DNA of 26,045 bases from Candidatus Iainarchaeum sp. (GCA_030649345.1 JAUSKK010000041.1:1-26045); one strand, 5' to 3'; counted from the first letter of the stretch, positions 1,487 to 25,003 are shown. The notes: generated by a model not told the origin, from the sequence alone. Numbers and translations are program-made.

Positions 1487-1714
1487 ATGGGTAAATTGTC
1501 AAATGTTTCTTGGAATGAACTTGTCAAAGTTTTGTCTTTAATTGGCTATGCTGTTGACCATCAAAAAGGCAGTCATTTAATTTTAATTAAACAAGGCTTT
1601 GGCAGAACAGTTGTGCCTAAGCGTGATTCTTTGCCGAAAGGTACTTTGCGTGCAATTTTACGTCAAACTGGTTTTTCGGTTGAAGATTTTTTGAATTTAT
1701 TGGAAAAAGTTTAA
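1487..1714 (+). CDS. hicA: HicA-family mRNA interferase toxin
   Basis: 75 aa with ...DHQKGSHLILIK...VVPKRDSLPKGTLRAILRQTGFS..., the YcfA/HicA signature including the catalytic GSH. A purine-rich RBS lies upstream. Confidence 0.85.
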   Translation: MGKLSNVSWNELVKVLSLIGYAVDHQKGSHLILIKQGFGRTVVPKRDSLPKGTLRAILRQTGFSVEDFLNLLEKV

Positions 1715-1729
1715 ATGGAGGTTGAATGA

Positions 1730-1966
1730 ATGAATACTAATATGAATAAAGTTTCCAGCAAATTTAGAGTAGTTTTATCTGTTGACGAAGACGGTTTTTT
1801 TATTGCAGAATGTTTAGACTTACCTGGCTGTGTTTCAGATGGAAAAACAAAACAAGACGCTTTAGAAAATATTAAAGAAGCGATTGAAGGTTATTTGGAA
1901 AGCTTAGCTAAGCATGGGGAAAAAATTCCAAATAAACATGCAGAACTAATTACTGTTAGAGTTTAA
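1730..1966 (+). CDS. hicB: HicB-family (UPF0150) antitoxin
   Basis: 78 aa with ...FFIAECLDLPGCVSDGKTKQDALENIKEAIEGYLESL..., a typical HicB N-domain. GGAGG at 1717-1721 lies 8 nt upstream of the ATG. The gene starts 15 nt after hicA. Confidence 0.8.
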   Translation: MNTNMNKVSSKFRVVLSVDEDGFFIAECLDLPGCVSDGKTKQDALENIKEAIEGYLESLAKHGEKIPNKHAELITVRV

Positions 1967-4091: not shown

Positions 4092-4748
4092 ATGCCGTTG
4101 AATTTAGTGTTTATTGGTCCTCCGGGTGCAGGTAAAGGAACAGTTGCAGGAATGGTTGCCCGAGAATGGCAAATCCCTCATTTAAGTACTGGAGAAATGC
4201 TGCGTTCTGAAATAGCCAAAGCTTCTGCTTTAGGAAAGTTTGTTCAGTCCATTGTAGCTTCCGGCGGTTTAGTGGATGATCAGACTGTTTCTCAAATTGT
4301 AGAACAACGCATCAAAGAACAAGATTGTTTACAGGGATTTATTTTGGATGGTTTTCCAAGAAATGTTCAGCAGGCTATTATCTTAGATGGTTTATTGGCT
4401 GCGCATGAAAAAAATGTTTCTGCTGCTGTTTTGTTTTTTATTCCAGAAGAAGCTTTAGTCAAGCGTTTGTCTGGCCGAAGATATTGCCCAAAATGTTCTA
4501 GAACGTACAATATGTATACTCCTGAACTAATGCCAAAAAAAGATTCCGTCTGCAATGACTGCGGTGTTATCTTACAACAACGAGCCGATGACAGGTCAGA
4601 ATCTGTTCGCAAGCGTTTGCATATTTACAATACTCATATTGCGCCTTTGTTGAAATTTTATCAAGAAAAAAATTTATTGCTGCAATTAAAAGCCGATGGC
4701 TCAATTCAAGAAAATGTTTCCAGGCTGAAAGAATTATTAAAACATTAA
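4092..4748 (+). CDS. adk: Adenylate kinase, long bacterial type with Zn-binding lid
   Basis: P-loop GPPGAGKGT, ...GFILDGFPRNVQQA..., and lid CPKC...CNDC. 218 aa. Confidence 0.95.
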   Translation: MPLNLVFIGPPGAGKGTVAGMVAREWQIPHLSTGEMLRSEIAKASALGKFVQSIVASGGLVDDQTVSQIVEQRIKEQDCLQGFILDGFPRNVQQAIILDGLLAAHEKNVSAAVLFFIPEEALVKRLSGRRYCPKCSRTYNMYTPELMPKKDSVCNDCGVILQQRADDRSESVRKRLHIYNTHIAPLLKFYQEKNLLLQLKADGSIQENVSRLKELLKH

Positions 4749-4761: not shown

Positions 4762-5460
4762 ATGATTCCTTTGAAAAATCGTGCTCAAGTTAAACGCTTG
4801 AATGTTTCAAATCATTCTTTAGGCAAACCCGGAGAATATGCTTCGGCTGTTCGTTTGGGGCGAATTGTTTTTCATCCCGAAAAAAAAGGCTCGAAAGTTT
4901 CTTCTCATCGGGTGGCTGTAAAATTTTTCAAACCCAAACATCCTTTGACACCCCAACGAGTTCGAGTTTATGAATCCGTAATTGAAAGGCTTAGAACTGC
5001 TGGAATTAAAATGCCTAAAATTGGCTTTGCAGAACACGAAGGACAATGGGTTCAAGTAAGCGGAGTATATGGAAGCAAATCTCGCACAAAATTAGATATT
5101 CGTCTTGATTCAAAATATTTACAGCAGCCTGAGCATGCCGAGCGCTTGCTTTCAGTTTGTTTAAAATTAATGAACGCAGGATTTCCTCCGTTTGGTGATG
5201 CAATTGGAGTCATTCAAACTTCTAGAGGTCCGTTGTTTCGTGTGTATGATTTAGATGCTTTGGTAGATTTTGAAGGACTAAAACCAAAGAAAAAATCTCA
5301 GTTAATGGGACTTCATTTAACTTCCATTTTTCAATTGCTATCCAGTGCTGGCTGGGATTATATTTCTGTGATGGATGCACTTGAACCCAGTCTTAGAAAT
5401 CAAGACGCTAAAAATGTGATTGCTGGTTTGCGGGCACAATTGGTCCGAGGTGGGCATTAA
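4762..5460 (+). CDS. Hypothetical protein, possibly a minimal or degenerate protein-kinase-like fold
   Basis: 232 aa. Candidate motifs are a Gly-rich LGKPGEYASAV, a beta3-Lys in VAVKFFK, ...GFPPFGDAIGVI... at the catalytic-loop position, and ...VYDLDALV... as a DFG-like element. The start is 13 nt after adk and the stop is 1 nt before the next ATG. Confidence 0.55.
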   Translation: MIPLKNRAQVKRLNVSNHSLGKPGEYASAVRLGRIVFHPEKKGSKVSSHRVAVKFFKPKHPLTPQRVRVYESVIERLRTAGIKMPKIGFAEHEGQWVQVSGVYGSKSRTKLDIRLDSKYLQQPEHAERLLSVCLKLMNAGFPPFGDAIGVIQTSRGPLFRVYDLDALVDFEGLKPKKKSQLMGLHLTSIFQLLSSAGWDYISVMDALEPSLRNQDAKNVIAGLRAQLVRGGH

Positions 5461-8334: not shown

Positions 8335-8985
8335 CTATTTTTTGTGCCGAATAATAAGTCCGCCTTCGCTGGTGACTTCAATTTGATATTTTTTTTCTAA
8401 TCTTGTTAACTCTCCGGTTCTTGCCATCCCAGTTCTGACTGTTGTAATTCTTAAGGCTCCATTTTCTCTTAATGCTGGCATTAATTGCTCAACCAATCCA
8501 GAAAGTGTTTCTTGTCCATTCATTGGGAAATAGGCTTCGGGTACTAAAATATGATCATAGAACTTTTTTGAATATTTGTGGGTAAACATGTTTCCTTGAC
8601 TTGCTTTCAGTTTTCCGGCTTTTATTAATCTATAAATTTTTCCTTTCAAGTACGGCAAATATTCTCCGTACGCAATGTCTAATAGTTCATAGTTTTCGGG
8701 TTTTAGTGGTGTGCGTTTCAGTAAATAATCTGTAAGCCTTCCGGTTCCGCTTCCAATTTCCAATACACGCGTTTCTGACCTAAGCGAAGAAAAAAATGCG
8801 CTATCTAATTTCAAATGTTGCCGCAGTATCCACGGTGCATTCATGGACCATTGCTGGTAATAGCCTCGAAATCTAACTTGTCGTTCAGACTGTGGCCTAG
8901 TGTCATAGATTGTGCGCCGCGGTCTTACTTTTATTTTCTTTTGTCCTGGAATTCTTCGTTTTTGCGGTGTTCTTATTTTCTGCAT
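8335..8985 (-). CDS. Class I SAM-dependent methyltransferase with an Arg/Lys-rich N-terminal extension
   Basis: Motif I is VLEIGSGTGRLTDYLL. The N-terminus MQKIRTPQKRRIPGQKKIKVRPRRTIYDTRPQSERQVRFRG precedes the fold. ATG 8985 is 16 nt after the stop of the upstream membrane gene. An alternative start at MNAPW (about 8844) would remove the tail. Confidence 0.75.
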   Translation of the reverse strand: MQKIRTPQKRRIPGQKKIKVRPRRTIYDTRPQSERQVRFRGYYQQWSMNAPWILRQHLKLDSAFFSSLRSETRVLEIGSGTGRLTDYLLKRTPLKPENYELLDIAYGEYLPYLKGKIYRLIKAGKLKASQGNMFTHKYSKKFYDHILVPEAYFPMNGQETLSGLVEQLMPALRENGALRITTVRTGMARTGELTRLEKKYQIEVTSEGGLIIRHKK

Positions 8986-9000
8986 TAACACATCGTGCGT

Positions 9001-9360
9001 TTAAGTCATTAAATAGTTTGCCATTCCGCTGGTCAAAAAAACAAGTCCTGCAGTTAACGGAAAAGTCCATCTTTCAAGTTTTGTGTTTGCAATAAAAATC
9101 CGCACAGTCAAAATTAAAATTCCATAAAAGAATAATGGCGAAAGTATGGGCATTGGAATCCAGCCCAGCATTTTGATGACTTCCGGCATGGTAAACATGA
9201 ACAAAATGAACACAAACGTTCCGCGAATCCAGGGCTTTTCTGGATTTTGAATTTTCACAAGGCAAGCAAAAGCAAACAACCAATGCAAATTACTTAGGGT
9301 TAAATTTAGAAAGAATCCGATGTTCAAATTTAAAACATTTAATAGTACTTCTTCAATCAT
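9001..9360 (-). CDS. Small integral membrane protein, paralogue of 23385..23753
   Basis: 119 aa with about 4 TM segments. ...LNIGFFLNLTLSNLHWLFAFACL...KPWI...LGW... aligns with ...LDLGWLLNYTISNFLWLFMFAALA...KTWI...TGW... of the other copy. Confidence 0.65.
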   Translation of the reverse strand: MIEEVLLNVLNLNIGFFLNLTLSNLHWLFAFACLVKIQNPEKPWIRGTFVFILFMFTMPEVIKMLGWIPMPILSPLFFYGILILTVRIFIANTKLERWTFPLTAGLVFLTSGMANYLMT

Positions 9361-9400
9361 GTTCCTAATACTATTGTTTTTTTCTCTTAAAGTACTCTAG

Positions 9401-9422
9401 TAGTCCTGTTCTAGTAGGACTA
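9401..9422. promoter_or_regulatory. Inverted repeat (candidate operator) just upstream of the TrmB-gene TATA box
   Basis: TAGTCCT-gttctagt-AGGACTA, embedded in a direct repeat CTAGTAG...CTAGTAG (9397-9417). It ends 12 nt before the TATA box. Confidence 0.4.
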
Positions 9423-9433
9423 GTTTCCATATC

Positions 9434-9441
9434 TTTAAATA
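9434..9441 (+). promoter_or_regulatory. TATA box of the TrmB-like regulator gene (leaderless mRNA)
   Basis: TTTAAATA within CTTTAAATACT. 22 nt separate the box from ATG 9464, and there is no Shine-Dalgarno. Confidence 0.55.
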
Positions 9442-9463
9442 CTCCTTGCCAGTTAATGAGTAT

Positions 9464-10213
9464 ATGAACTCTGAATTTTTGGAACGCATTGGTTTAACCC
9501 ATACTGAATCTTTGGTTTATTTGGCATTGTTCAAACTGGGTGCTTGTAAAGCCTATGATATTATTCGGGAAACCAATTTGCATAAATCTCGAGTCTATGA
9601 TTCTTTGGATCGTTTGCTGGAAAAAGGTTTGATTGGTTCTGTTATGCATGAACAAGTAAAACATTTTGCTGTATTGGATCCAGAGCATTTGCTTGATTTT
9701 GTGGAAGAGCGCAAAAAAGAATTGGATGGCTTAAGACTAGAAGCCAAGAAAAAGTTGCCGGAATTGGTTGCTTTGCGTGAATTGGATTCTCAAAAGCCTT
9801 TTGCTGAAGCTCAAGTTTTGTTTGGAGTCGAAGGCTTTAAATCCATGCGCAGAGATTTGTTAAAACATTCTAAAGGAGAACATTTGATGATGGGTGCTAT
9901 TTCCCGCGAACCCAAAGTTATGCCTGTTTTTTTTAATTGGTTTGAACGTGAACGCATTCGTCAAAAAATTTTTCAAAGAATTTTATTGCAAAAAGGATAC
10001 GATAAGCCTTTGCCTAAAAAAAGGCTGGTTGAATTTCGCAGTTTGCCTTCAGAAATTACTGTGCCGGCAGTCATTAATGTTTATGGTGACCGAGTAGTCA
10101 ATGTTTTATGGAAAAAAGATTATCCTTTGTGTTTTATGTTGGTCAATAAAGACATTGCAGATGCGTATAGATCTTATTTTGATTTGTTGTGGAAGACTAG
10201 TTCTAAAGTTTAA
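9464..10213 (+). CDS. TrmB-family winged-helix transcriptional regulator
   Basis: MNSEFLERIGLTHTESLVYLALFKLGACKAYDIIRETNLHKSRVYDSLDRLLEKGLI is a TrmB N-terminal wHTH, followed by a coiled linker and a C-terminal domain. I chose the start at ATG 9464, which is 22 nt after a TTTAAATA box; the track's 9446 is a TTG. Confidence 0.8.
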   Translation: MNSEFLERIGLTHTESLVYLALFKLGACKAYDIIRETNLHKSRVYDSLDRLLEKGLIGSVMHEQVKHFAVLDPEHLLDFVEERKKELDGLRLEAKKKLPELVALRELDSQKPFAEAQVLFGVEGFKSMRRDLLKHSKGEHLMMGAISREPKVMPVFFNWFERERIRQKIFQRILLQKGYDKPLPKKRLVEFRSLPSEITVPAVINVYGDRVVNVLWKKDYPLCFMLVNKDIADAYRSYFDLLWKTSSKV

Positions 10214-10248
10214 TTTTTTTAAAAGTTTTTATACTTGGTTTTTCAAAT

Positions 10249-10575
10249 CTATGCTCCATATCTTTCAAATCGAATAACTTTTTCAGCCGTAATGTCCGCC
10301 AGTATGCTTACGCTTTGATCAGTTGGTCCATTTGGCAGATCATACATAACTGTGTATAATTTGTTTAAAGTATTGGAAGGACTTGAGTGTCCTATTGCAT
10401 TGGTAACTTTGTATTCTATTCCAAAATTCTTTTTGTTTGGAAAATGTTTTTCAAGTTCTTGATCTGCAATTTGAATTGCTTTTTTTTGCTCTTGTGTCCA
10501 ATTTATGTTTAAATTTGCAGACGTAACTTTTTTTGAATTAAACATAGCAAACAGTACAATTTCTGTGATAATCAA
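10249..10575 (-). CDS. Hypothetical small protein (possibly signal-anchored)
   Basis: 108-aa ORF 52 nt downstream of the KaiC-like gene on the same strand, with no recognisable family. The start is uncertain: TTG at 10575 gives a hydrophobic N-terminus IITEIVLFAMF, and the ATG at 10545 is the alternative. Confidence 0.45.
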   Translation of the reverse strand: MIITEIVLFAMFNSKKVTSANLNINWTQEQKKAIQIADQELEKHFPNKKNFGIEYKVTNAIGHSSPSNTLNKLYTVMYDLPNGPTDQSVSILADITAEKVIRFERYGA

Positions 10576-10627
10576 TGCGATTGGTATGTATAATTTTTTT
10601 CTATTCGCATATTGGTTTGTGTTAAAT

Positions 10628-11341
10628 TTATTTCATTGCATCCCATTGTACATGGTCTTTGGTGTTGACTGCAATTCCGTTGTTGGTGATGTCAAAAGTG
10701 TGAATGAATTTGCTTTGATTTGTGCCTCTCATTTTTTTCACAAACAATGCTCTAGTCGGAGGATTAAAGTATAATGCAATAACTCCATCCACAATGAATT
10801 CTTCTACGCCCATTCCTGAAAAGGCTTCTTTTTTTCCAGAAGTTTCTGTGGTTAAAACTGTGGTAACATCCATGTCTTTGAGTTTATTGGTGAAATCGTA
10901 CAATATTCCTCTGAGTTTTGCTTTTTGAGTAATCCAGATTCCAAACGCTGTAACTGTATCTACCACAATTCTAGTTGCTCCAATTTCTTCAACTGTTTCT
11001 GCAATGACATCCAATTCATCGTCAATGCGATCTTCTACATTGTCGTCTTGTGAGTCTTGTTCTAAATTGAGTCTATAAATTCTTAGCAAATTTTTTTCCT
11101 GTAAGCTTCGAATATTCCAGTTAAAGCTTTCCATATTCCATACAATGTTCTTCAGATTAGTTTCCAAGGTGACCAAGAGTCCTGGTTCTTTGTAGTCTAA
11201 GGCTCCTTTGTATAAGAATTGGGTGGCAAAAATTGTTTTTCCAGTTCCTGCTCCGCCTGCAATCAAGCAAGAGCTTCCTTTGGGTATTCCTCCTTGAATT
11301 AATTCATCCAATCCTGGAATTCCTGTCTTTACGCGGTCCAC
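10628..11341 (-). CDS. Single-domain KaiC/RadA-like RecA-superfamily ATPase
   Basis: ...KTGIPGLDELIQGGIPKGSSCLIAGGAGTGKTIFATQFLYKG... (Walker A), ...RIVVDTVTAF... (Walker B). 237 aa. GTG start preceded by AGGGGGA. Confidence 0.85.
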   Translation of the reverse strand: MDRVKTGIPGLDELIQGGIPKGSSCLIAGGAGTGKTIFATQFLYKGALDYKEPGLLVTLETNLKNIVWNMESFNWNIRSLQEKNLLRIYRLNLEQDSQDDNVEDRIDDELDVIAETVEEIGATRIVVDTVTAFGIWITQKAKLRGILYDFTNKLKDMDVTTVLTTETSGKKEAFSGMGVEEFIVDGVIALYFNPPTRALFVKKMRGTNQSKFIHTFDITNNGIAVNTKDHVQWDAMK

Positions 11342-11381
11342 TTAAAATCCCCCTTTTTACTCATTTTTGTGATTTATTTAA

Positions 11382-11462
11382 AAAGCTTTGATATTATTAG
11401 GGGTTGCTTTTTTTTAAAGCTTTGTGCCGAAGGCTTTTTGCTAAAGCTTTTTTAAAAGCTTT
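11382..11462. promoter_or_regulatory. Cluster of four AAAGCTTT palindromes in the divergent KaiC-like / scpA intergenic region
   Basis: Exact AAAGCTTT at 11382-11389, 11416-11423, 11443-11450 and 11455-11462. I saw only about four other copies in the remaining 26 kb. Confidence 0.45.
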
Positions 11463-11514
11463 TGTTGAAATAATCTATTAGAAACTCTTGTTTTTTGAGT
11501 GTGTTTTGCATACT

Positions 11515-11522
11515 TTTAAATA
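11515..11522 (+). promoter_or_regulatory. TATA box of scpA (leadered mRNA with an AGGTG RBS)
   Basis: TTTAAATA lies 40 nt upstream of ATG 11562. AGGTG is at 11552-11556. Confidence 0.45.
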
Positions 11523-11561
11523 GGTGAAATGTATACTTATGTTGCCTGAAAAGGTGTTTAT

Positions 11562-12353
11562 ATGAAGTCTGACAACTCCCAACTTAACTTAGCGAAAAGC
11601 ATTGCTATTGAAGATATTGGGGAAGAATCTGTTTTTTCAGTAAATTCTACGGATGATTTAGTTCAATTAATTCATTTCCCTGAATGGAAAATGATTTTAT
11701 TAGATTTAATTAAAAAAGAAAAAATGGATGTCTGGGCCATCGACATTGGTGTTTTGGCTGGAAAGTATTTGAAAAAAATTGAAGAATTAAAAGAAACCAG
11801 TTTGCGTTTACCAGCCAATGCTATTTTGGCTTCAGCAATTTTGCTTCATTTAAAATCAAAAACCATTCGTTTTCCTTGGCTGGAAGTCAAAGAACCTGAA
11901 TTAACCGAAGAACAAAAGCAAGCCATGATGGCTTCTTTGCCAGACTTAACTACTTCGTTTAAAGTCAAAGAAGGAATTGTTACTTTAGATGAATTGGTGG
12001 GTTCCATTGAAGAAATCATGGAGCAAATGAAAATTAAACCCAAAGATAAAGTGCGTGCAGAAATTATTAAACCTGAATTTTTAGTGAATGTAACTCAAGA
12101 AAATTGGGATCAAAAAGTCGAAGAAGTTTTTTCTTTAATTCAATCCAGAGTAGACTCTCAAGGATTAACTTTGTTTTCTCGTTTATTGGATAGCCCTGAT
12201 GTTTTGGAAAAAATTAACAAATTTGTTCCTTTATTGTTTTTAATGAATAAAGGAAAAATTAAAATGGTTCAAGAAACTTTTTTTGAAGAAATTTTTATTC
12301 AGTTATTAAACAATACTTTAGTTGAAGTTCCCGAAGGAACTGCAGAAGAATAA
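11562..12353 (+). CDS. scpA: Segregation and condensation protein A (kleisin)
   Basis: ...WKMILLDLIKKEKMDVWAIDIGVLAGKYLKKIEELKE...LRLPANAILASAILLHLKSK... matches the ScpA N-terminal domain. AGGTG lies 6 nt upstream of the ATG. Confidence 0.8.
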   Translation: MKSDNSQLNLAKSIAIEDIGEESVFSVNSTDDLVQLIHFPEWKMILLDLIKKEKMDVWAIDIGVLAGKYLKKIEELKETSLRLPANAILASAILLHLKSKTIRFPWLEVKEPELTEEQKQAMMASLPDLTTSFKVKEGIVTLDELVGSIEEIMEQMKIKPKDKVRAEIIKPEFLVNVTQENWDQKVEEVFSLIQSRVDSQGLTLFSRLLDSPDVLEKINKFVPLLFLMNKGKIKMVQETFFEEIFIQLLNNTLVEVPEGTAEE

Positions 12354-12354
12354 A

Positions 12355-13419
12355 CTACTGAATTATTCTTTTAAATCTTAAATATCCTTGTACTGCTTCA
12401 TAAAAGGATTCAGGTCTTTTAGGATTAATTACTTTAAACACTTCTTGAATATCTTTTATAGTTGCAGTTTGTGCTGCTGTGTTTGCAATTCTGGAAATAT
12501 ATTTTTCATTTTGGTGTCCTGTTTGAATCATCGCTGATTGAACCACGGCTCCAAACATGGCTTTTACGTAATCTTCTTTAGCTACTTTTTTTGGAGTCAT
12601 TATCATTTTTCTAGCCAATGCATCGTCTGGAAAAAATTGAGTTGGTTGTCGATCAAAATTTCTTCGAATTTGCACTCTGGGATTTCCTGCAAATATTCTT
12701 CTTAATTCTTGAAAAGGCAAAGTATGAAATTCTCCCAATCGTACAAAAATTCGTTCATTTTTGCCTTTCTTTTCTTTTAATCGTTCATTGATTTCTGCTT
12801 GGAGTCTTTCTCGAATTGCTGGATCTCTGATTTTGAGTGGTTCAATATATGCTTTCATTAAATTAGTGAATGAATTCAAAGCAAAACCATAATTTCCTTG
12901 TTCAATGGCTTGTCCAAAATTTTGTTGATGTATGCTCATTCGTTGTTCAAATTCACTAACTTGTTCAGCTAAATCTCCTTTGAGCTGTTCTCCAATGATT
13001 CTGACTCCTTTTCGTTTCAATTCATTGGTTAATCTATCTTGTTCTTGATGAAATCCTTCCATGCCTGGTCTTATTTCAGTATCCTGTATTCCTGGAATTT
13101 TCTGAACCTGGTTTAAAAATGTTTCAACGCGTCTTTTGAGAACATCTAATGGTTCTTTGCTTCCTTTGCTTTTTAAATGTCTTACAATTTCAGTTACAGC
13201 TTCATCTATTTTTCCTTCAGCTACCAATGCATCAATATTGGATCGTGCTCATTCTTTAAAATAAGCATCTCCTTTTTTGAGTCTTCTGGTTTGTCTTCGA
13301 AGTCTGTTTATTGTTTGTTCTTGTAAATGTGGGCCAAATGAAAAATGTACGTGTACTTTTTTTGTGCCGGATTTTCTTCTTCGAATGTTTTGAATTCCAG
13401 CAGGCGCTCTAGGTTTCAT
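12355..13419 (-). pseudogene. Paralogue of 13470..14549 interrupted by a single in-frame TGA (13249..13251). Either a pseudogene or a read-through candidate.
   Basis: Track ORFs 13249..13437 and 12355..13227 are in the same frame, separated only by TGA plus 7 sense codons. Across the junction the sequence reads ...KKGDAYFKE*ARSNIDALVAEGK..., which is colinear with ...RKGDVYFKEGIANQAQQLLLEGK... in the neighbour. Confidence 0.65.
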
Positions 13420-13469
13420 ATAATTATTGTATTTCAACTGAATTAAATAATTTCCGTTTAGTCAAATTT

Positions 13470-14549
13470 TCAAGGCAAGGGAATGACTTGTCTTCTGCGA
13501 AGCAATCCGTGTTCTCTTAAAAAGTATTCAATTCTATCGTAAAATTCATTAGTACTTATTCTTTGGTTGCCCATGAGCCGTTTGAGTGTTTGTTCGTTAA
13601 TAATTCTGGAAGCATTGATTGCAGTTTTTTCCACAAATTTTCGATTTATCAAGCCTTTTGCATGCAGGGTATTTTGAACTATTTCAAAAACAAAGCCTTG
13701 CATTAATTTTTCTCGGCTTACTGGTTTGCCTTGAATCAAGCGTTCTGTTACTTCTTTGTCTCTTCTGCGCGAAGGATTTTGAATATCCAATTCTTCTTGA
13801 ATGTGTATTCTGGAATTTCCTTTAAATTTTTCTCGCAATTTCCGCATAGGTTCTGTGTGCCCTGCGCCCAATCGTACTAAAATAGTTCTTTTTTGCTTTG
13901 TTCGAATTGCTTCTTGTATTCGTTCATGAATTTGTTCGTAAATTCGTTCATCTCTTCGAGGTACTAATTCAGCTACTCTTGTAAGAATTTCTTGATATTC
14001 GTTTAATGCCTCGGAAATATTTCCCGCTAAAAGTTCTTGTTGCATGCGATGTGCATGACCTTTAATTTTTTTGTTTAACCGTCCGTATTCTTCATCTTCT
14101 TTTAAACCATACCATTCTACTTCAGGTAAGACGCCTTTTTTTCGTTGTTCTTCAATAAGTTCTCTTTCTTCTTTTTTGAATTTTTGCCGATCTATTTGTT
14201 CTGCGCTTTCTAAATATTCAAGAGCTAGCTGTCTTCGTTCACTGGCTGTCTTTCCTGCATAGTTTGGGTTGTTTTTAATCATTTGTCCAACCAATGCAAG
14301 TGCTTCGTTTCGTTTTCCTTCTAAAAGCAATTGCTGTGCTTGATTGGCAATTCCTTCTTTAAAATATACATCTCCTTTTCGCAATTGCTTGGCTAGCTTC
14401 CGTGTTCTAAGTAAATCCCATTTATCCATATGCATTCCCAAAGAAAAAATTACTTTAACTCCAGGCTTTCTGTACAGTCTTTTTCTCTGATTTGCTTTTC
14501 TTCCAGCCGGCAAAGAAGGATACTTTGGTCTTGTTCTTCGTGCTTGCAT
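13470..14549 (-). CDS. Uncharacterised protein with an Arg/Lys-rich leader and two G-x-x-H/Glu repeats (Tiki/TraB-like?)
   Basis: I chose the start at ATG 14549 (MQARRTRPKYPSLPAGRKANQRKR...), which matches the paralogue's N-terminus and removes the overlap with dinB. Motifs: VIFSLGMHMD...KGDVYFKE and ...ILVRLGAGHTEPM...RIHIQEE. Confidence 0.8.
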   Translation of the reverse strand: MQARRTRPKYPSLPAGRKANQRKRLYRKPGVKVIFSLGMHMDKWDLLRTRKLAKQLRKGDVYFKEGIANQAQQLLLEGKRNEALALVGQMIKNNPNYAGKTASERRQLALEYLESAEQIDRQKFKKEERELIEEQRKKGVLPEVEWYGLKEDEEYGRLNKKIKGHAHRMQQELLAGNISEALNEYQEILTRVAELVPRRDERIYEQIHERIQEAIRTKQKRTILVRLGAGHTEPMRKLREKFKGNSRIHIQEELDIQNPSRRRDKEVTERLIQGKPVSREKLMQGFVFEIVQNTLHAKGLINRKFVEKTAINASRIINEQTLKRLMGNQRISTNEFYDRIEYFLREHGLLRRRQVIPLP

Positions 14550-14635
14550 AGTAATAAATTTCTTCAATTCCTTAATTAATCTATGGTTGCAAATGAATGA
14601 TGTCAAATTAATATATTGTGAATACAAAAGATAGT

Positions 14636-15751
14636 ATGCATCATTCATTTGAACGAATTGTTTTGCATTTGGATTTGAATTATTTTTTTGCCCAAGCCGA
14701 AGAATTAAGAAAACCTGAATTGAAATGCAAACCAGTGGTTGTCTGTGTTTACTCGGGCCGCACTCCTACTTCTGGTGCTGTAGGCACTTCCAATTATCTT
14801 GCACGTGCTTTAGGCATTAAGTCAGGCCAACCTATTTTTCAAGCCCAGCAAAAAGCTACTCCAGAAACTGTTTTTTTGCCAGTAGATATTCAATACTATA
14901 AAATTATTTCCATTCAAGTAATGGAAATTTTAAAATCACACTCAGATTCTTTTGAGTCTGGGGGTGTAGATGAAGCGTTTATTGAAATCACGCAAGCATG
15001 CAAAGGAAATTACAAGAAAGCCAAAGAACTGGCTGAAGAAATCAAAAAAGATTTATTGCAAAAAACTGGGTTAATTTGCAGTATTGGAATTGCACCCAAT
15101 AAACTGTTGGCCAAAATTGCTTCAGATTTTCAAAAACCAGATGGTTTAACTATCCTTGAACCTTTTCAAGTTCAAAAATTTATCAATCCTTTATCTGTGA
15201 GTGTTATTTCAGGAATTGGTCCCAAAACAGCTGAACACTTGAAAGAATTGCATGTTGAAAAAGTTTCTGAGCTGGCAAAACTGCAAAAAAGTGTTTTAAT
15301 TCAAGAATTCGGAAATGCCAAAGGAGACTTTTTGTTCCAAGCAGCTCAAGGTCTAGATGAAAGTCCAGTTCAAGAAAGTTCTGAACACCAGCAGTTTTCT
15401 CGTATGACTACTTTGAAAAAAGATTCTAAAAATTTAACTGAACTTATCGAAGTTTCAATTCCTTTAATGAACGAATTATGTGCCCGCTGTCAAAAAGAAA
15501 ACATTTTCTTCAAAACCATTTCCATTGTTTTAGTCTCAACTAAACTAGAATCGTTTACTAAAGCCAAAACTGTCCTTGCACCAACCCACGATTTGAAAAT
15601 TTTTCAACAAACTGTACAATCTCTTTTTTCTGACTTTTTAAAATTGCACACAGATTTTACTGCCCGCAGATTGGGCATTTCAGTTTCTCATTTTTCAAGT
15701 TCTTTTAAACCTTCACTTTCAGAAAAACAACGTACATTAAACGAATTTTAA
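14636..15751 (+). CDS. dinB: Y-family DNA polymerase IV (Dpo4/DinB)
   Basis: ...IVLHLDLNYFFAQAEE..., ...GGVDEAFIE..., ...SIGIAPNKLLAKIASDFQKPDG..., ...ISGIGPKTAEHL.... ATG 14636 is preferred over the track's GTG at 14618. Confidence 0.9.
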   Translation: MHHSFERIVLHLDLNYFFAQAEELRKPELKCKPVVVCVYSGRTPTSGAVGTSNYLARALGIKSGQPIFQAQQKATPETVFLPVDIQYYKIISIQVMEILKSHSDSFESGGVDEAFIEITQACKGNYKKAKELAEEIKKDLLQKTGLICSIGIAPNKLLAKIASDFQKPDGLTILEPFQVQKFINPLSVSVISGIGPKTAEHLKELHVEKVSELAKLQKSVLIQEFGNAKGDFLFQAAQGLDESPVQESSEHQQFSRMTTLKKDSKNLTELIEVSIPLMNELCARCQKENIFFKTISIVLVSTKLESFTKAKTVLAPTHDLKIFQQTVQSLFSDFLKLHTDFTARRLGISVSHFSSSFKPSLSEKQRTLNEF

Positions 15752-15753
15752 TG

Positions 15754-15760
15754 TTTTTTT
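15754..15760 (+). terminator. Oligo-T terminator after dinB
   Basis: TTTTTTT begins 3 nt after the TAA stop. Archaeal termination commonly uses oligo-T tracts. Confidence 0.4.
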
Positions 15761-15799
15761 CTGAAATGTTTTATTAATCCTTGTTTCCAAGAATTAAAT

Positions 15800-16456
15800 A
15801 TGGTTCAATCTTCTTTAGCTCCAGTTGTTGTTTTAATAGGCCGTGCTGCTTCCGGTAAAACTACTTCAGCAGAAACTTTAGCTCGAAAAAGTCCAGTTCC
15901 AGTGGTTGTTTTTGGCGGCTTTATTCGAAAAGAAATTGAAGAAAATACTCTAATTGGCCAGAAAGCCATGGCGGGTTTGAAAACCCAAGGTTTTGTTCCA
16001 ACTGAAATTTACATGAATTATATTAATAATTTAATTCAAGCCAATCCTGCAAAATTTAGAAATGGTTTTATTGTAGAAGCTTTTCCCAGGAGTGTTTTTC
16101 AAGTTCCTGAATTTGAGAAATTTTTGCGCAGTAAAGGAATGAGAATTGCACATGTTTTTTTGTTTAATGTTTCTAAAAAAACCAGTGCTCGAAGACTGCA
16201 AACTCGTGCAAAACAAACTGGACGAGAAGATGTTTTGCCAGTAGAACAAAGACAAGCTTTGTTTGACCAGCATGCCGGTCGTTTGCTGGCTGAATTTGGA
16301 ACCAAAGGTATGGTCTCTGTAGTTAATTCCAATCATTTGCCTATCCGCAGAATGACTAACTTTTTTTTAGCACGCCATAAAGCACGCGTTCGTACTGTTC
16401 GAAAAAGTAAGCTTAGAATTATTCGTCCGCGTATTCCTCGTTTGCCTAGAAGATAA
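15800..16456 (+). CDS. Divergent short-type adenylate/NMP-kinase-like protein with an Arg-rich C-terminal tail
   Basis: ...VVVLIGRAASGKTTSAE... (degenerate P-loop), ...GFIVEAFPRSVFQ... (compare GFILDGFPR in adk), no Zn lid. The C-terminus is RRMTNFFLARHKARVRTVRKSKLRIIRPRIPRLPRR. Confidence 0.7.
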   Translation: MVQSSLAPVVVLIGRAASGKTTSAETLARKSPVPVVVFGGFIRKEIEENTLIGQKAMAGLKTQGFVPTEIYMNYINNLIQANPAKFRNGFIVEAFPRSVFQVPEFEKFLRSKGMRIAHVFLFNVSKKTSARRLQTRAKQTGREDVLPVEQRQALFDQHAGRLLAEFGTKGMVSVVNSNHLPIRRMTNFFLARHKARVRTVRKSKLRIIRPRIPRLPRR

Positions 16457-16458
16457 TT

Positions 16459-17649
16459 ATGAAACCCTTTGAATTCATTTATGGAAATCATTCCAGTTCT
16501 TTGAAAAATAAAACAATTGTATTGGCTGTAACCGGAAGTATTGCTGCAGTCAAAACAGTTGAATTGGCGCGAGCATTAATTCGTTTCAGTGCAAATGTTG
16601 TTCCGGTTATGTCTAAATCTGCAACTGAGATTCTGCATCCGAATGCTTTAGAATATGCGTGTGGTCAAAAACCGTTGACTCAAATTACTGCACAAATGGA
16701 TTATTTGGATTTATTTGGCAAAAATGGCCGATCTGATTTGTTGTTAATTTGTCCAGCCACAGCTGATTGTATTTCTAAAATAGCCCATGCTTTTTCAGAT
16801 GATTTAATTTCTATCCTGGCGTTGAATGCTTTGGGCTCCAAAAAACAAATTTTGATTGTTCCAGCTATGCATGAAAGTATGTTGGAAAATAAACTTTTGC
16901 AGAAAAATATTGTAAAACTAAAAAAAGCAGGTATTGTTTTCTTAGAACCGTTCATTCAAGAAGAAATTGGAAAATTGCCAGAAAAAGAAACAATTGTTTT
17001 GGAATGCGAACGTTTGCTTTCGGTTCATTCTTTAAAAAATAAAACAGTAGTCATTGCTTCCGGTAAAACCGAAGAAGATGTAGATGATTTAAGAATTTTA
17101 ACCAATCGTTCTAGCGGCAAAATGGGTTCAGAATTGGCCTTGCAAGCTTATCGTTTGGGTGCTCAAGTTGTTGTCGTTGCATGTGAACCTATTCCATTTA
17201 CTCAAATTAAACAAATTCGAATTCGTACAGCTGAAGAAATGGAGCAAGCTCTTTTTCAAGAATGTAAAAAGGCCAATTTTTTGTTAATGCCTGCAGCGAT
17301 TGGCGATTTTGATATTCGTGTGGTCAAACAATCTGGAAAAATTTCTTCCAAAAATAAAACTGTTTTAGAATTATTTCCCCGTGCCAAAATTATTGCTAAA
17401 CTGCGCAAAAAATTTTCCAAATTGTTCATTTTAGGCTTTAAAGCATGTGCTCAAGAATCTGAAATTGAATCTATTTGTTTAGAAAAACTAAAAAAAGATC
17501 AATTGACTGCTTTGGTTGGAAATGTAGGCAAAACAATGATGGGTGCTGATTCTGGAACTGTTTGGTTGTTTAAAGAAAAAGGTTCTGTAAAAATTCAAGG
17601 AACTAAAAAAGAAATCGCGCAAAATATTTGGAGTGAAATTCTTCAATGA
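16459..17649 (+). CDS. coaBC: Bifunctional phosphopantothenoylcysteine decarboxylase / phosphopantothenate-cysteine ligase
   Basis: N-terminal flavoprotein ...IVLAVTGSIAAVKTVELAR...PVMS..., ...ICPATADCISKIAHAFSDD.... C-terminal ...ILTNRSSGKMG...PAAIGDF.... 396 aa. Confidence 0.9.
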   Translation: MKPFEFIYGNHSSSLKNKTIVLAVTGSIAAVKTVELARALIRFSANVVPVMSKSATEILHPNALEYACGQKPLTQITAQMDYLDLFGKNGRSDLLLICPATADCISKIAHAFSDDLISILALNALGSKKQILIVPAMHESMLENKLLQKNIVKLKKAGIVFLEPFIQEEIGKLPEKETIVLECERLLSVHSLKNKTVVIASGKTEEDVDDLRILTNRSSGKMGSELALQAYRLGAQVVVVACEPIPFTQIKQIRIRTAEEMEQALFQECKKANFLLMPAAIGDFDIRVVKQSGKISSKNKTVLELFPRAKIIAKLRKKFSKLFILGFKACAQESEIESICLEKLKKDQLTALVGNVGKTMMGADSGTVWLFKEKGSVKIQGTKKEIAQNIWSEILQ

Positions 17650-18437
17650 AACTTGGAATTGATTTTGGAGCCAGTCATACGGATTTGGTTTTAGTTAAAG
17701 GAACTCAAATCATTTTTTCAAAAACAATTCCAGTAACTCATTTTCGCAAGCCTAAAATCTCTGAATTGCTTAAAGAAATTAATTTATCTAACGTAAATCA
17801 TATTTTTGTCACAGGCTGGGGTGCGCGTTATTTTCCAAAAAAATATCAAAACATTCTAGTTTCTAAAACTTCTGAAATTCAAGCCATTGCTTTGGGTGCT
17901 CAAAAGCTTTCCAAGAAAAAAAATTGTTTGGTAATTTCTATGGGCTCAGGTACTGCTATTGTTTCAGTTAAAGGAAAAAAATTCAAGCATATTGGCGGAA
18001 CCGCAGTTGGCGGAAGGATGCTGTTAGGATTGTCTGAATTGTTATTAAATACCAGTGATATTCAGAAAGTTTTCAAATGGTCCAAAAAAGGACGCTTGGA
18101 TAAAGTGGACTTGTTATTGAAAGAAATTTATCCGCAAGGCTTGGGTCATTTGCCTTGGAATGTTTCTGCTGCTCATTTTGGTTATCTTCAAAAACCTTCT
18201 AAATTTGATTTGTCCATTGCTTTACTGAATTTGGTAGCGCAAACCATTGGTTCTATTTCTTTATTTGCAGCCAAAGCTTATAATCATAAAACAATTGTTT
18301 TTGTTGGTCGCTTGGCTGAATCGAAAGAAATTCAAACAATCTTGAAAAAACGGATTCATATTTTTGCTCCGCATTTAACGTTTATTTTTCCAAAAAATGC
18401 AGGCCTAGCCGTTGCTTTGGGTTCCATTCAAAATTAG
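17646..18437 (+). CDS. coaW: Type II pantothenate kinase (ASKHA fold, Staphylococcus CoaA/CoaW-like)
   Basis: MKLGIDFGASHTDLV..., ...FVTGWGAR..., ...VISMGSGTAIVSVKGKKFKHIGGTAVGGRMLLGLSELL..., ...SAAHFG..., ...IVFVGRLA.... From memory these are colinear with S. aureus type II PanK (MKVGIDAGGTLIK / NVGTGTS...GGIGTGGGMIQGLGYLL / TAANFG). The ATGA overlap with the coaBC stop supports co-function. Confidence 0.75.
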   Translation: MKLGIDFGASHTDLVLVKGTQIIFSKTIPVTHFRKPKISELLKEINLSNVNHIFVTGWGARYFPKKYQNILVSKTSEIQAIALGAQKLSKKKNCLVISMGSGTAIVSVKGKKFKHIGGTAVGGRMLLGLSELLLNTSDIQKVFKWSKKGRLDKVDLLLKEIYPQGLGHLPWNVSAAHFGYLQKPSKFDLSIALLNLVAQTIGSISLFAAKAYNHKTIVFVGRLAESKEIQTILKKRIHIFAPHLTFIFPKNAGLAVALGSIQN

Positions 18438-18444
18438 TTTTTTT

Positions 18445-19074
18445 TTATTTAAGTCTTAATCTGCGTGTTCTTTTATCAAATGTTTTTCGAAGTGCTTTTC
18501 TTTTTTCAGTTTTTCTTTGTGCAACTCTTCGGGTAACCATTTGCCGCATTCTTCCGACAGACATTTTAGGCCTTAATAGGCCTCGAGCAACCGAAATCAT
18601 TTGTTCTGGATTTTTCGAATGTTGAATAATAAATAATGCAAATTCTTTGGCCAATTGCCCTTCTTTATCTTGTCTTGGAGTTTGAATCATTCGTTCTCTA
18701 AATGCAGTCAATTCTTTTGGATAATATTTTGCCATTCCTAAATATTGAGCCAATTGATCAAATATTTCGGACTTAACTGGATCAAAATCTACTTTTTTTC
18801 CAGCCTTTTTTTCTCCATGAACATATGCTTCATACACTAAGTGTCCAATATCTGCAAAAAACGTGTGTTCGTATTTATGCGAGGCAATGTATACTTTTCC
18901 TTTTCGAATTGGATGAATGGGACCTAGCCATTCTTGTGCATTTCTGCGAACGCTCATAAATGCTTGGTTGCTGACCAGCTTGTATTCGGGTACAGGTACT
19001 TTGAATAAATTGAAAAAATGTTCAATAATTTCTGCCTGTCTTTCTTTGACTGCTTCAATATCTTGTGCGCCCAT
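18445..19074 (-). CDS. Hypothetical protein with an Arg/Lys-rich C-terminal tail
   Basis: 209 aa with no recognisable family. The last 42 aa are RPKMSVGRMRQMVTRRVAQRKTEKRKALRKTFDKRTRRLRLK. The ATG is 3 nt after the stop of the upstream TIM-barrel gene. Confidence 0.6.
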   Translation of the reverse strand: MGAQDIEAVKERQAEIIEHFFNLFKVPVPEYKLVSNQAFMSVRRNAQEWLGPIHPIRKGKVYIASHKYEHTFFADIGHLVYEAYVHGEKKAGKKVDFDPVKSEIFDQLAQYLGMAKYYPKELTAFRERMIQTPRQDKEGQLAKEFALFIIQHSKNPEQMISVARGLLRPKMSVGRMRQMVTRRVAQRKTEKRKALRKTFDKRTRRLRLK

Positions 19075-19077
19075 ATT

Positions 19078-20118
19078 TCATTTTCCTTTTTTGTTCTTTT
19101 TAATCATTTCCCATACTGTTTTATTGTTTTTTAGGTTAACGTAATCTTCTTTTTCTTCTTTGATTTCAGTCACAATAAATTTTGGTTTCACTTTTCGAAT
19201 TCCTTGAATGATCTTACTTAATTCTAAATCTCCTTCAATATGTCCATCCATACTCTTTCCTTTGAATAACCTATTTTCGTAACTGCAGTTGTTTAAATGC
19301 ACTTGTTTGAGTTTTCCTTTTCGCTGAATTAATTTTAACCAGCGAATAACTTCTTGGGTTGTTTTTTCTTTTTTAGTTTCTTTTTGTTTTAGTAATTTTG
19401 TTTCCATTGTTTGTTCTTCCAGCCCAAAATATACTGGTTTCCAGCCTAAATAGGAATTGACTCGGGCTTGATGTGAATTAAATGTTTTTTGTTTTTCTTG
19501 ATCTAACAATGTTCGCAGTGTTAATCCTGCGTGTGCAATATCTAAAGTAGTATTTGTTTTTAGTTGAATGAAATCTTGAGGTAATTTTCCAATTTCGTGA
19601 AATGTTGTAAATGTTCCAGGCGGGTTGGGTATTTCGAGTAAAGGGATATTTTCCAGTACAATTTTCTTTTTTCCAATTTCGTTCAAAAATTCCCTGAATT
19701 CACTTAAAAGTTCCATTTTGTTTCGTTCATACGAGACAAAATTATTGCTTTCAATTTTTCGCATATCTCCAGTTAAATGAATATTTAAATGTTCAAATCC
19801 AATTTTTTCCAATAATTCAATTGCTGTTTGAATACTTTCTCTGCTTTGTTTTCTTATTTTAGAATTTTGCGATAAAACATCCAAAATAGTTTCGTTATTC
19901 AAAGTCCAGCCAATTTCTGCACTCAAAACAGGAAATAACCCATCCAAGTAATTCAAATAGTCTGTTTTTAATGCATGCAAAATTTTTTCTTTGGTTGGAT
20001 GTGAAATCTCAAACAATACTTCCACTCCGCCAATCAGTTCTTTCTTAACATTTTCTGCTTGGGCCGCTAATTGCCGTTTGTTTAGAATGCATTTTCCCAA
20101 TAATTTTGTTTTCGTCAT
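19078..20118 (-). CDS. Xylose-isomerase-like / AP-endonuclease-2 TIM-barrel family protein
   Basis: The spacing of ...LNIHLTG..., ...IVLENIP..., ...LDIAHAG..., ...VHLNNC...DGHIEGDL... fits the metal-ligand pattern of the PF01261-type TIM barrel. There is a Lys/Glu-rich insertion, and the C-terminus is Lys-rich. I prefer the start at ATG 20118 (MTKTKLL) because it avoids overlap with the upstream gene. Confidence 0.6.
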   Translation of the reverse strand: MTKTKLLGKCILNKRQLAAQAENVKKELIGGVEVLFEISHPTKEKILHALKTDYLNYLDGLFPVLSAEIGWTLNNETILDVLSQNSKIRKQSRESIQTAIELLEKIGFEHLNIHLTGDMRKIESNNFVSYERNKMELLSEFREFLNEIGKKKIVLENIPLLEIPNPPGTFTTFHEIGKLPQDFIQLKTNTTLDIAHAGLTLRTLLDQEKQKTFNSHQARVNSYLGWKPVYFGLEEQTMETKLLKQKETKKEKTTQEVIRWLKLIQRKGKLKQVHLNNCSYENRLFKGKSMDGHIEGDLELSKIIQGIRKVKPKFIVTEIKEEKEDYVNLKNNKTVWEMIKKNKKGK

Positions 20119-23384: not shown

Positions 23385-23753
23385 TTAAATTCCTCCTAAA
23401 AATAAATTGTAAAAGCAAACTAAAACCAAAAATCGAATTGTGGTAATTAAAGGAATTTTTCCGCGTAATTTTTCCATATCTTCTGTTACAATGGTTAATG
23501 CTGTTTGGCTTAACATTTCCAAAGTCAAAAATGTGCCAGTTAAATACATCCATCCAGTACTTGTCATTACATCTTGTTCCAATGTCAATAGTACAAATAC
23601 AGCCATGGATGCATAGATCCAAGTTTTTCCTTCCCATAAATAAAACGCCAAAGCCGCAAACATAAATAACCATAAAAAATTGCTTATAGTGTAATTCAAA
23701 AGCCAGCCTAAATCCAATCCAATCAAATGAATGAAAAACTCCACAAAAACCAT
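23385..23753 (-). CDS. Small integral membrane protein, paralogue of 9001..9360
   Basis: See 9001..9360 for the alignment. I prefer the start at ATG 23753 (MVFVEFFIHLIGLDLG...) over the track's GTG at 23762, because the N-terminus is then colinear with MIEEVLLNVLNLNIG.... Confidence 0.65.
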   Translation of the reverse strand: MVFVEFFIHLIGLDLGWLLNYTISNFLWLFMFAALAFYLWEGKTWIYASMAVFVLLTLEQDVMTSTGWMYLTGTFLTLEMLSQTALTIVTEDMEKLRGKIPLITTIRFLVLVCFYNLFLGGI

Positions 23754-23837
23754 GTTATTCACTTTACTCCGTTCTATTAATACTAATTTTCTGAATTAAT
23801 AAGACTTTTAATTAATTTTTGCGCTTTTTAGCTAATG

Positions 23838-23869: not shown

Positions 23870-25003
23870 ATGGCAAAGAAAATACGTTTAACTAAAAGTG
23901 CAATCCAGCCTTTGGCTGACTGGAAAGCTTTAGCTAATTTGGATGTCAAAGACCGTAAGTTGTTGTGGTTTTTGTCTAAAAATTATCGTTTGCCATATAC
24001 TTTTTTGGCAGAACAAATTGGTTTGTCGAAAGATTCTGTAAAGTATAGAATTCAAAAATTGGAGCAAGCTGGTTTGATTTTGTCGAAAACATTTTTAGTA
24101 AATCCTGTTTGGATTGGCCATGAATATGTGACTGTTTTTTTAAGTTTTCAAAATTTGACTATGGAAAAAGAACAATCTTTGGTTCAGTTTTTTTTGAATC
24201 ATCCAGCTACCAATATTGTTTATCGTCTTGCTGGAAAATGGCAGATTTGGTGGGGTATTGATGCTCGCGATTTAATTGAATTGGATGAATTTTTGAATGA
24301 TTGCAAAATTGCCTGTGGGACTTACTTGAAAGAATACGAGATTTTGCCGGCATCCAAAGAATACAAATGGGCTAATTTAATTCCAGCTATAACTCAAGAC
24401 TTAAATTTAGGGCCTTTAATGTATTCCAAGAACGATTTTTCGTTTGAAAAAGATATTTTATCATCTCCTCCTTTGGAACTGCGCCACGGTCAAGGAATTG
24501 CTTTAACTTCAATTGAATTAGACTTAATTTCAGCTTTAAATGAAAACTCAAACATTACTGCAGATCAGCTTTGTGTTCAATTAAATTTGTCGAAAGATAC
24601 TGTTCGAAAATTGATTCAAAAACTAATTTACAGCGGAGCGGCGAATGCCTTTTGGCCTTTTTTTAATTATAAAAAACTTGGTTTGGAAACGTACGTTATG
24701 TGCATTAAATTAAAATATTTGAATGAATCTTGGGATCAAAAATTAACCAAATTTATTCAAAATCATCCTTGGATTCGAATGGGTGTAAAAGTGATTGGAT
24801 CTTGGGATGTCTTGCTGGAAATTCCTTGCAAAAATACTGCACATTTTTATGAATTATTGGATGAATTTCGCGAAGAATTCAGTGAAATTATTCAAACCTA
24901 CGAATCGTTTCCGATTGCAGACTACTTGTACTTTAATGCAACTCGTGCTTTGATTAACAATGAACGCAGGCCCAAACAGTCTTGGCTTCAACCCAAACTT
25001 TAA
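23870..25003 (+). CDS. Transcriptional regulator with two tandem Lrp/AsnC-like modules (wHTH + small alpha/beta domain, twice)
   Basis: Module 1: LDVKDRKLLWFLSKNYRLPYTFLAEQIGLSKDSVKYRIQKLEQAGLI.... Module 2: LTSIELDLISALNENSNITADQLCVQLNLSKDTVRKLIQKLIYSGA.... Each is followed by about 80 aa with a RAM-like pattern (...YVTVFL..., ...YVMCIKL...). Confidence 0.7.
   Translation: MAKKIRLTKSAIQPLADWKALANLDVKDRKLLWFLSKNYRLPYTFLAEQIGLSKDSVKYRIQKLEQAGLILSKTFLVNPVWIGHEYVTVFLSFQNLTMEKEQSLVQFFLNHPATNIVYRLAGKWQIWWGIDARDLIELDEFLNDCKIACGTYLKEYEILPASKEYKWANLIPAITQDLNLGPLMYSKNDFSFEKDILSSPPLELRHGQGIALTSIELDLISALNENSNITADQLCVQLNLSKDTVRKLIQKLIYSGAANAFWPFFNYKKLGLETYVMCIKLKYLNESWDQKLTKFIQNHPWIRMGVKVIGSWDVLLEIPCKNTAHFYELLDEFREEFSEIIQTYESFPIADYLYFNATRALINNERRPKQSWLQPKL

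Follow-up and report, generated by a model that had tools for sequence, protein, structure and literature searches.

Arginine-rich basic tails at the termini of lineage-specific accessory proteins in a 26-kb stretch of a DPANN-type archaeal genome

Basic, disordered extensions that bind nucleic acids are known from ribosomal proteins, from the H1-like Lys/Ala/Pro tails of bacterial HU/Hlp and topoisomerase I, and from the arginine-rich motifs of viruses. Here we analyze five short tails rich in lysine and arginine (K+R), which were found at the ends of a methyltransferase-like protein, an adenylate kinase-like (ADK-like) protein, two tandem paralogues (A and B) and an orphan protein, all encoded in a 26,045-nucleotide stretch of DNA from Candidatus Iainarchaeum sp. 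(JAUSKK010000041.1). This whole stretch of 26 kb, with a GC content of 34% and 31 called genes, is referred to as the window. Like the known extensions, the tails are terminal and lie outside the fold, contain 35–50% K+R with few acidic residues, are free of a motif and are predicted to be disordered. They differ in being dominated by arginine rather than composed of Lys/Ala/Pro repeats, and in being attached to small enzymes without a known nucleic-acid role. Basic disordered appendages on enzymes are an already known phenomenon, and the window reveals no new mechanism; it offers a clean, statistically supported example of this phenomenon in the DPANN archaea, a lineage for which we found no published description of basic tails.

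Two further systems are comparable in other respects. Microcompartment shell pentamers of Hodarchaeales carry fused Lys/Arg-rich disordered regions that are reported to capture cytosolic DNA (PMC12747264). These are likewise archaeal K/R-rich disordered appendages on an unrelated core function and act through charge, but they belong to other host proteins in another lineage, the window contains no shell genes, and its tails are much shorter. Substrates of type IV secretion systems (T4SS) have positively charged C-terminal translocation signals, including the VirB/D4 arginine motif and the Bartonella BID domain plus charged tail (PMC10025392). There too, proteins that are not related to one another have in common a short terminal segment of positive charge, with little consensus. 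In contrast to these signals, three of the five tails in the window are N-terminal, the arginine pattern R-x7-R-x-R-x-R is absent and the organism is an archaeon; no T4SS or coupling ATPase is encoded among the 31 window genes.

Basic termini were scored as terminal segments of 30 residues containing at least 11 K+R. The 31 genes on 26 kb constitute our sample of the source genome, and four of their 62 protein termini reach this threshold, where approximately 0.16 are expected from composition (14.7% K+R). These are the C-termini of the orphan protein (15/30, the most basic 30-residue segment across the whole window) and of the ADK-like protein (13/30), and the N-termini of the methyltransferase-like protein (12/30) and of paralogue B (11/30), with binomial P values of 5e-6 to 2.5e-3. 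Interior segments of the same length reach 11 K+R in 0.64% of cases, nearly all of which overlap these same tails. A first-pass annotation of the DNA had listed five Arg/Lys-rich tails. Its coordinates and K+R counts were exact on recount, which gave 15/41, 15/36, and 19/42, and four of the tails are strong by the 30-residue measure, but the N-tail of paralogue A is weaker (8/21) and does not stand out by it. The annotation had also considered that such tails might be equally common across the whole proteome, which does not agree with their uneven distribution among the proteins. Its distinction between tailed proteins and core enzymes is borne out: none of the enzymes encoded by adk, ahcY, nth, coaBC, and dinB exceeds 6 of 30 K+R at either end, and tail bearers account for 4 of the 10 window proteins without a Pfam family above threshold vs. 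1 of the 21 with one (P 0.03), an enrichment in lineage-specific over core genes. The terminal basic tails are real, non-random and coded parts of their proteins.

For comparison we used 80 loci fetched through AhcY as an anchor and 80 through KaiC, both as background and for synteny; a genome scan anchored on CoaBC yielded no loci. Background termini were taken from open reading frames (ORFs) of at least 120 amino acids (aa) in 155 archaeal and bacterial loci, called with a crude greedy procedure that leaves the N-termini approximate. With this background, 22 of 2,112 termini (1.0%) in other DPANN and archaeal loci are at the threshold vs. 6.5% in the window, an approximately 6-fold difference (Fisher P 0.006). 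The five syntenic relatives closest to the window lie in between, at 3.4%, and when the window is pooled with these close relatives the comparison with the other DPANN and archaeal loci gives a Fisher P of 0.001. In bacteria of the Candidate Phyla Radiation and other bacteria, 0.3–0.4% of the termini reach the threshold.

The five tails together contain 42 arginines and 22 lysines, a ratio R/(R+K) of 0.66 compared with 0.27 in the 26 non-tail proteins (P 9e-10). They use both AGA and CGN codons and contain no tandem DNA repeats. As this arginine bias occurs in a genome of 34% GC that otherwise prefers lysine, with mixed codons and no repeats, it points to selection for arginine and not to AT drift. 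The possibility that purine-rich or repetitive DNA had given rise to the tails as a by-product was rejected on the same mixture of codons and lack of tandem repeats, and no structured RNA overlapping the tails was found (no Rfam hit). Each tail consists of 37–48% K+R with 0–2 acidic residues, giving a net charge of +8 to +15, and the longest hydrophobic run is 1–2 residues. In the charge-hydropathy plot all five are located on the disordered side, and disorder is probable for the four tails other than that of paralogue B, for which a structural model is described below. What the tails have in common is composition, not a motif: pairwise local alignments remain below z 2.5 against shuffles for every pair, and the tails of paralogues A and B, aligned in isolation, reach z 0.9.

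The bodies of the five tail-bearing proteins are also rich in arginine (R 8.4% vs. 3.7%), and the isoelectric points (pI) of these proteins are 10.2–11.8, in a window proteome that is basic overall (approximately two thirds of the proteins have a pI above 8.5). In their GC content at third codon positions (GC3) the tail genes match the remaining window genes; they are therefore native, and of a distinct compositional class. A viral or mobile origin was considered and rejected (PHROG searches returned only a generic kinase, the GC3 is native, and housekeeping genes are interspersed). By composition, the protein encoded at 4762–5460 (+) belongs with the tail bearers (7.3% R, pI 10.2), but it has no strongly basic terminus. 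It has no Pfam, NCBIfam, or PHROG matches and no relatives in the fetched loci, and, compared with the gene order of the related locus L002 (see below), its gene is an insertion that separates adk from the AAA_33 kinase gene.

For the three N-terminal tails, the signals upstream of the possible start codons are informative. A TATA-like 8-mer is located exactly at positions −30 to −23 of each of the three tail-including ATG codons (Table 1), and the 15 alternative in-frame ATG/GTG/TTG codons of these genes all lack such an element; at a base rate of 9.5% for random positions, three out of three corresponds to a P of approximately 0.001. In the methyltransferase-like gene, no TATA-like box is found before GTG 8991, ATG 8844, or the other in-frame candidates, and in paralogue B the eight alternative starts in frame (14648 to 14384) all lack one. 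Many genes in the window, such as those for adk, DUF63, GGR, and the ADK-like protein, have a TATA-like element (TTTAA, TTAAT, or TTTAT) approximately 24–32 nt before the ATG, and many lack an obvious Shine-Dalgarno sequence, which suggests that transcripts in the window are mostly leaderless. The spacing between TATA element and ATG is sharp enough to help pick start codons in this genome. Taken together with the alignment of paralogues A and B, which reaches into the N-terminal region, it makes mis-called starts unlikely. The concern of the first-pass annotation that the N-tails could be products of such mis-called starts is thereby answered, as the promoter spacing fits only the ATG codons that include the tails.

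TABLE 1. Tail-bearing genes, their tails and the TATA-like boxes of the N-tail genes, with the canonical adk gene. Coordinates are those of the window; aa, amino acids; net, net charge.
Feature	Coordinates	Strand	Sequence	Remarks
Probable class I S-adenosylmethionine (SAM) methyltransferase	8335..8985	−		216 aa, pI 10.3; N-terminal basic tail
Methyltransferase-like N-tail	8863..8985	−	MQKIRTPQKRRIPGQKKIKVRPRRTIYDTRPQSERQVRFRG	15/41 K+R, 10 R, net +13
TATA-like box	9008..9015	−	TATTTAAT	−30..−23 of ATG 8985
Paralogue A, rare uncharacterised family	12355..13419	−		354 codons; in-frame TGA at 13249–13251
Paralogue A N-tail	13357..13419	−	MKPRAPAGIQNIRRRKSGTKK	8/21 K+R, net +8; weakest of five
TATA-like box	13442..13449	−	TATTTAAT	−30..−23 of ATG 13419
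Paralogue B	13470..14549	−		359 aa, pI 10.2; alpha/beta fold
Paralogue B N-tail	14460..14549	−	MQARRTRPKYPSLPAGRKANQRKRLYRKPG	11/30 K+R, 0 acidic residues
TATA-like box	14572..14579	−	TTAATTAA	−30..−23 of ATG 14549
ADK-like protein, divergent short-type adenylate/nucleoside monophosphate (NMP) kinase	15800..16456	+		218 aa, pI 11.8; second besides canonical adk
ADK-like C-tail	16373..16453	+	RHKARVRTVRKSKLRIIRPRIPRLPRR	13/27 K+R, 10 R, 0 acidic residues
ADK-like C-tail, longer span	16346..16453	+		15/36 K+R
Orphan (hypothetical) protein	18445..19074	−		209 aa, pI 10.2; HKYEH...DIGH motif, C-terminal basic tail
Orphan C-tail	18448..18555	−	GRMRQMVTRRVAQRKTEKRKALRKTFDKRTRRLRLK	17/36 K+R, net +15, proline-free
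Orphan C-tail, longer span	18448..18573	−		19/42 K+R
Canonical adk	4092–4748			

The tails are add-ons outside the fold, as follows from the starts of relatives and the onset of order in a structural model for the paralogues, and from the limits of the domain in the ADK-like and methyltransferase-like proteins. Four of the five host proteins have no Pfam hit above threshold. The methyltransferase-like protein contains the methyltransferase motif I VLEIGSGTG and matches Pfam Methyltransf_25/23 below threshold (E 1e-3, residues 66–178; 19.7 bits for Methyltransf_25 vs. a cut-off of 27); no PDB sequence relative was found below E 0.35. Its N-tail precedes the fold, which begins at approximately residue 44–66, the domain match starting at approximately 66.

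The ADK-like protein matches Pfam PF00406 (ADK) over residues 12–163 with 67.2 bits (cut-off 26.8), has an intact P-loop GRAASGKT (GxxxxGK[ST]) and is below every NCBIfam equivalog cut-off; on these matches it is assigned to the adenylate kinase family as a divergent member. Among 5.8 billion proteins it matched only itself. Adenylate kinases in the PDB align with it up to residue 183 of 218, and the tail lies beyond. The long adenylate kinases (NCBIfam NF010381/PRK13808) likewise continue beyond the kinase core at the C-terminus, with an extension that is presumably basic in character. The ADK-like protein is however not a member of this group, as it matches only positions 3–130 of the profile (length 335), and its tail of approximately 27 aa compares with more than 100 aa there. 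Searches of Pfam, NCBIfam, PHROG, and PDB sequences gave no match for the orphan protein, and a search among 5.8 billion proteins returned only the protein itself; as there is no domain model, its tail is placed by terminal position only. Around residues 66–78 of the orphan, H-K-Y-E-H (HxxEH) is followed by DIGH, an arrangement that may resemble an inverted-zincin metal site.

Paralogues A and B are 27% identical (E 8e-30) in an alignment that spans the in-frame stop of paralogue A and runs through the N-terminal region. A word-indexed search of 5.8 billion proteins with paralogue B returned only itself, and an exhaustive profile search with both paralogues identified 18 distant relatives (P0006–P0023) among 1.84 billion representatives. 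The invariant positions of the family are a histidine after strand 1, a glutamate, R199, and G228-x-x-H231. Four relatives (P0007, P0011, P0012, and P0017) begin 5–10 residues before the first β-strand motif (FSxGxH), others have acidic or mixed leaders, and one carries a Tat signal; a polybasic leader is present in the family alignment only in the two window proteins. Thus, the idea that homologues would lack the tails holds for these distant relatives, as it does for the canonical adenylate kinases. One of the relatives is itself a tandem duplication. An AlphaFold model of paralogue B, calculated with the family alignment, has a mean predicted local distance difference test score (pLDDT) of 86 and a predicted template modeling score (pTM) of 0.81. 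In this model residues 1–30 show block-mean pLDDT values of 46–58, and the first strand starts at residue 31.

The paralogue family has no Pfam match and no fold match in the PDB (best E 0.28; the leading matches have a template modeling score, TM, no higher than 0.2). Among viral models (BFVD), the top fold match of paralogue B is a Marseillevirus TraB family protein (E 0.02, probability 0.99, TM 0.30/0.45). The paralogues, and only these among the tail bearers, share with the TraB/PrgY/GumN-Tiki proteins the motif order GxxH ... E ... R ... GxxH and an alpha/beta core, but they differ in having no Pfam or PDB fold hit, and the TM to the viral TraB model is low. They may represent a new branch of the TraB/Tiki hydrolase superfamily. 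The in-frame TGA of paralogue A aligns with a glycine of paralogue B. GGA is the dominant glycine codon (265 uses), and TGA is the normal stop codon in 4 of the 31 genes. The simplest explanations for the TGA are a recent GGA>TGA nonsense mutation, which would make paralogue A a young pseudogene or a split gene, or an error in sequencing, and recoding is an unlikely one. Bases 13306–19276 are reproduced base-identically by an independent Logan assembly of run SRR13727527, of which the contig ends short of the TGA site.

The AhcY protein of the window is 64–71% identical to that of uncultured DPANN archaea (Woesearchaeota, Micrarchaeota, Nanoarchaeia, "ainarchaeum"), and the gene order adk/ahcY/kaiC/scpA is common to four loci from archaeal metagenome-assembled genomes (L002, L004, L020, and L080). 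The source organism is therefore a DPANN-type archaeon. None of the 160 fetched AhcY and KaiC loci encodes a relative of any tail-bearing protein. At the position of the methyltransferase-like gene, directly downstream of ahcY, L002 has two tandem paralogues of its own (11334–11876 and 11934–12416, both on the − strand), which are 41% identical and have no homologues in any other fetched locus. Their N-tails, MPT(I)KKP..RKRERRK...GP..RS, are near-identical (z 12 vs. shuffles), and such tails can therefore be under purifying selection. In L004, a true Pfam methyltransferase has a leader rich in Arg, and a further protein, of 229 aa, has the C-terminus ...RLRALRSEKRASTVRAKKDRSK...RRR. The basic-tailed proteins of L002 and L004 show no homology to the tail bearers of the window. 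As different basic-tailed orphan ORFs (ORFans) are thus present in syntenic relatives, the tails look like a habit of the clade. Lys/Ala/Pro tails of the H1-like type occur in other DPANN loci, for instance on a Lon_C-domain protein in L042. The tails of the window are lineage-specific and appended to fast-evolving accessory proteins.

The interpretation that we favor, and to which we attach even chances, is that the tails would serve as polycationic, disordered and non-specific electrostatic tethers to polyanions, chiefly RNA, DNA, or ribosomes. A run of 8–17 Arg/Lys with almost no acidic residues would bind polyanions non-specifically, above all RNA/DNA or ribosomes, by an electrostatic mechanism that is not based on a motif. 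Binding through the tail would then hold the attached enzyme on nucleic acid, as with ribosomal-protein extensions and histone H1-like tails. Tethering is what comparable basic extensions are known to do, and the capture of DNA reported for the K/R-rich disordered regions on archaeal shell proteins (PMC12747264) provides a precedent. Binding to polyanions or nucleic acids would apply to all five tails. The first-pass annotation had noted the resemblance to nucleic-acid-binding basic extensions beside the idea of one common targeting device, and the resemblance is the more economical proposal. Several points weigh against tethering. The tails of A and B are no more alike than shuffled sequences, leaving sequence-level constraint in this genome unproven; no role connected with nucleic acids has been demonstrated for any of the five hosts, and binding is inferred. 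Furthermore, with a basic proteome and Arg-rich protein bodies, part of the signal may be a property of the protein class and not of the tail itself, and the evidence is limited to 26 kb of the genome. DPANN genomes are tiny and a large share of their genes are unexplained orphans. If Arg-rich tails mark a subset of these, they would provide a cheap criterion for sorting them, together with a testable idea of their site of action: nucleic acid, envelope, or host.

It is possible, though we think it rather unlikely, that the tails are neutral by-products, that is, ORFan termini extended by drift of starts and stops in a fast-evolving basic proteome, which are tolerated and without function. The overall basicity of the proteome and the Arg-rich bodies are compatible with this, as are the absence of a shared motif and the insignificant likeness of the A and B tails. 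The hosts are highly divergent (four lack a Pfam hit above threshold, and the three searched gave self-hits only), and each related genome has different tail-bearing ORFans. Drift would however not be expected to favor arginine 2:1 over lysine, contrary to the AT bias of the genome, nor to leave acidic residues almost absent from the tails and basic segments concentrated at termini and not in interiors. The strong conservation of the L002 tails and the 6-fold higher frequency than in other DPANN loci also argue against it.

A shared charge-based signal for targeting or translocation, marking effector-like enzymes for export or delivery to a host, appears improbable. In its favor, the source is a DPANN-type archaeon, the tailed enzymes evolve fast and are specific to the lineage, as is usual for effectors, and the Tat signal of one distant relative of the paralogues indicates that this family can be exported; moreover, T4SS substrates provide cases of charge signals that lack a consensus (PMC10025392). 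The tails themselves do not support the single shared localization or targeting device that was initially proposed: they are found at either terminus, have no common motif and are not amphipathic. They have no hydrophobic core, and neither the h-region nor the S/T-R-R-x-F-L-K motif of Sec/Tat signal peptides is present; the twin-arginine motif and the VirB/D4-type arginine pattern are absent from all five tails. In addition, no secretion, conjugation, or shell genes are found among the 31 window genes, and we know of no charge-based export system in DPANN archaea. In its most explicit form, drawn by analogy, the Arg-rich tails would be an export or host-delivery tag on rapidly turning-over effector-like enzymes (NMP kinase, methyltransferase, TraB/Tiki-like hydrolases) of an episymbiotic DPANN clade. 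We consider this very doubtful; if true, such a tag would correspond, in archaea, to the positively charged signals on bacterial type IV secretion substrates or to cell-penetrating peptides. A cargo-loading peptide for an encapsulin or microcompartment was also considered and rejected, as tail-tail alignments stay below z 2.5 and the window has no shell genes.

Polybasic membrane anchors are a known device, and with a net charge of +8 to +15 on short terminal segments the tails could bind anionic archaeal lipids and tether the enzymes to the inner face of the membrane. We regard such an envelope tether as a long shot. The helix and strand hydrophobic moments of the tails are matched by 91–406 of 500 shuffles, so that the tails are not amphipathic, and they lack aromatic or hydrophobic residues that could serve as an anchor (no hydrophobic run exceeds 2 residues); as Arg-rich, Pro-containing segments they are more like nucleic-acid-binding motifs. 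An amphipathic membrane-targeting helix of the MinD/FtsA type was rejected because the moments do not exceed those of shuffles.

An annotation artefact, with N-tails from mis-called starts and C-tails from sequencing frameshifts or loss of a stop, is scarcely credible: the in-frame stop of paralogue A indicates that the contig or gene is not flawless, and the gene caller on the Logan contig set the start of paralogue B six codons further upstream, but the promoter spacing singles out the tail-including ATG codons, the alignment of A with B includes the N-terminal region, stop codons fix the C-termini, the independent assembly is base-identical, and the methyltransferase-like gene has approximately 46 stop-free codons before the next Met, for which the composition at 34% GC implies a chance of approximately 3%.

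Besides the genes in Table 1, the window encodes diphthine synthase, a Trm5/TYW2 methyltransferase, AhcY, TrmB- and Lrp-type regulators, a KaiC-like ATPase, ScpA, DinB, CoaBC, a Fumble-type pantothenate kinase, Nth, geranylgeranyl reductase, and HisA/IE. The genes at 9001–9360 (−) and 23385–23762 (−) code for small membrane proteins that are paralogues of each other (29% identity across 68 aa, E 1e-9). Both form a divergent pair with the gene for a winged-helix regulator, of the TrmB type at 9446–10213 and of the Lrp/AsnC type at 23870–25003, and this pairing of regulator and membrane protein forms a module that is repeated in the window. A HicA/HicB toxin-antitoxin pair is located at 1487–1966 (+), and a similar pair is found in L002 (12467–13029), between the tail-bearing paralogues and the KaiC-like gene. 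Finally, an imperfect 13-nt tandem repeat, GCTTTTTGCTAAA, is present in 4.5 copies (11406–11463) in the intergenic region from which the KaiC-like gene and scpA diverge.

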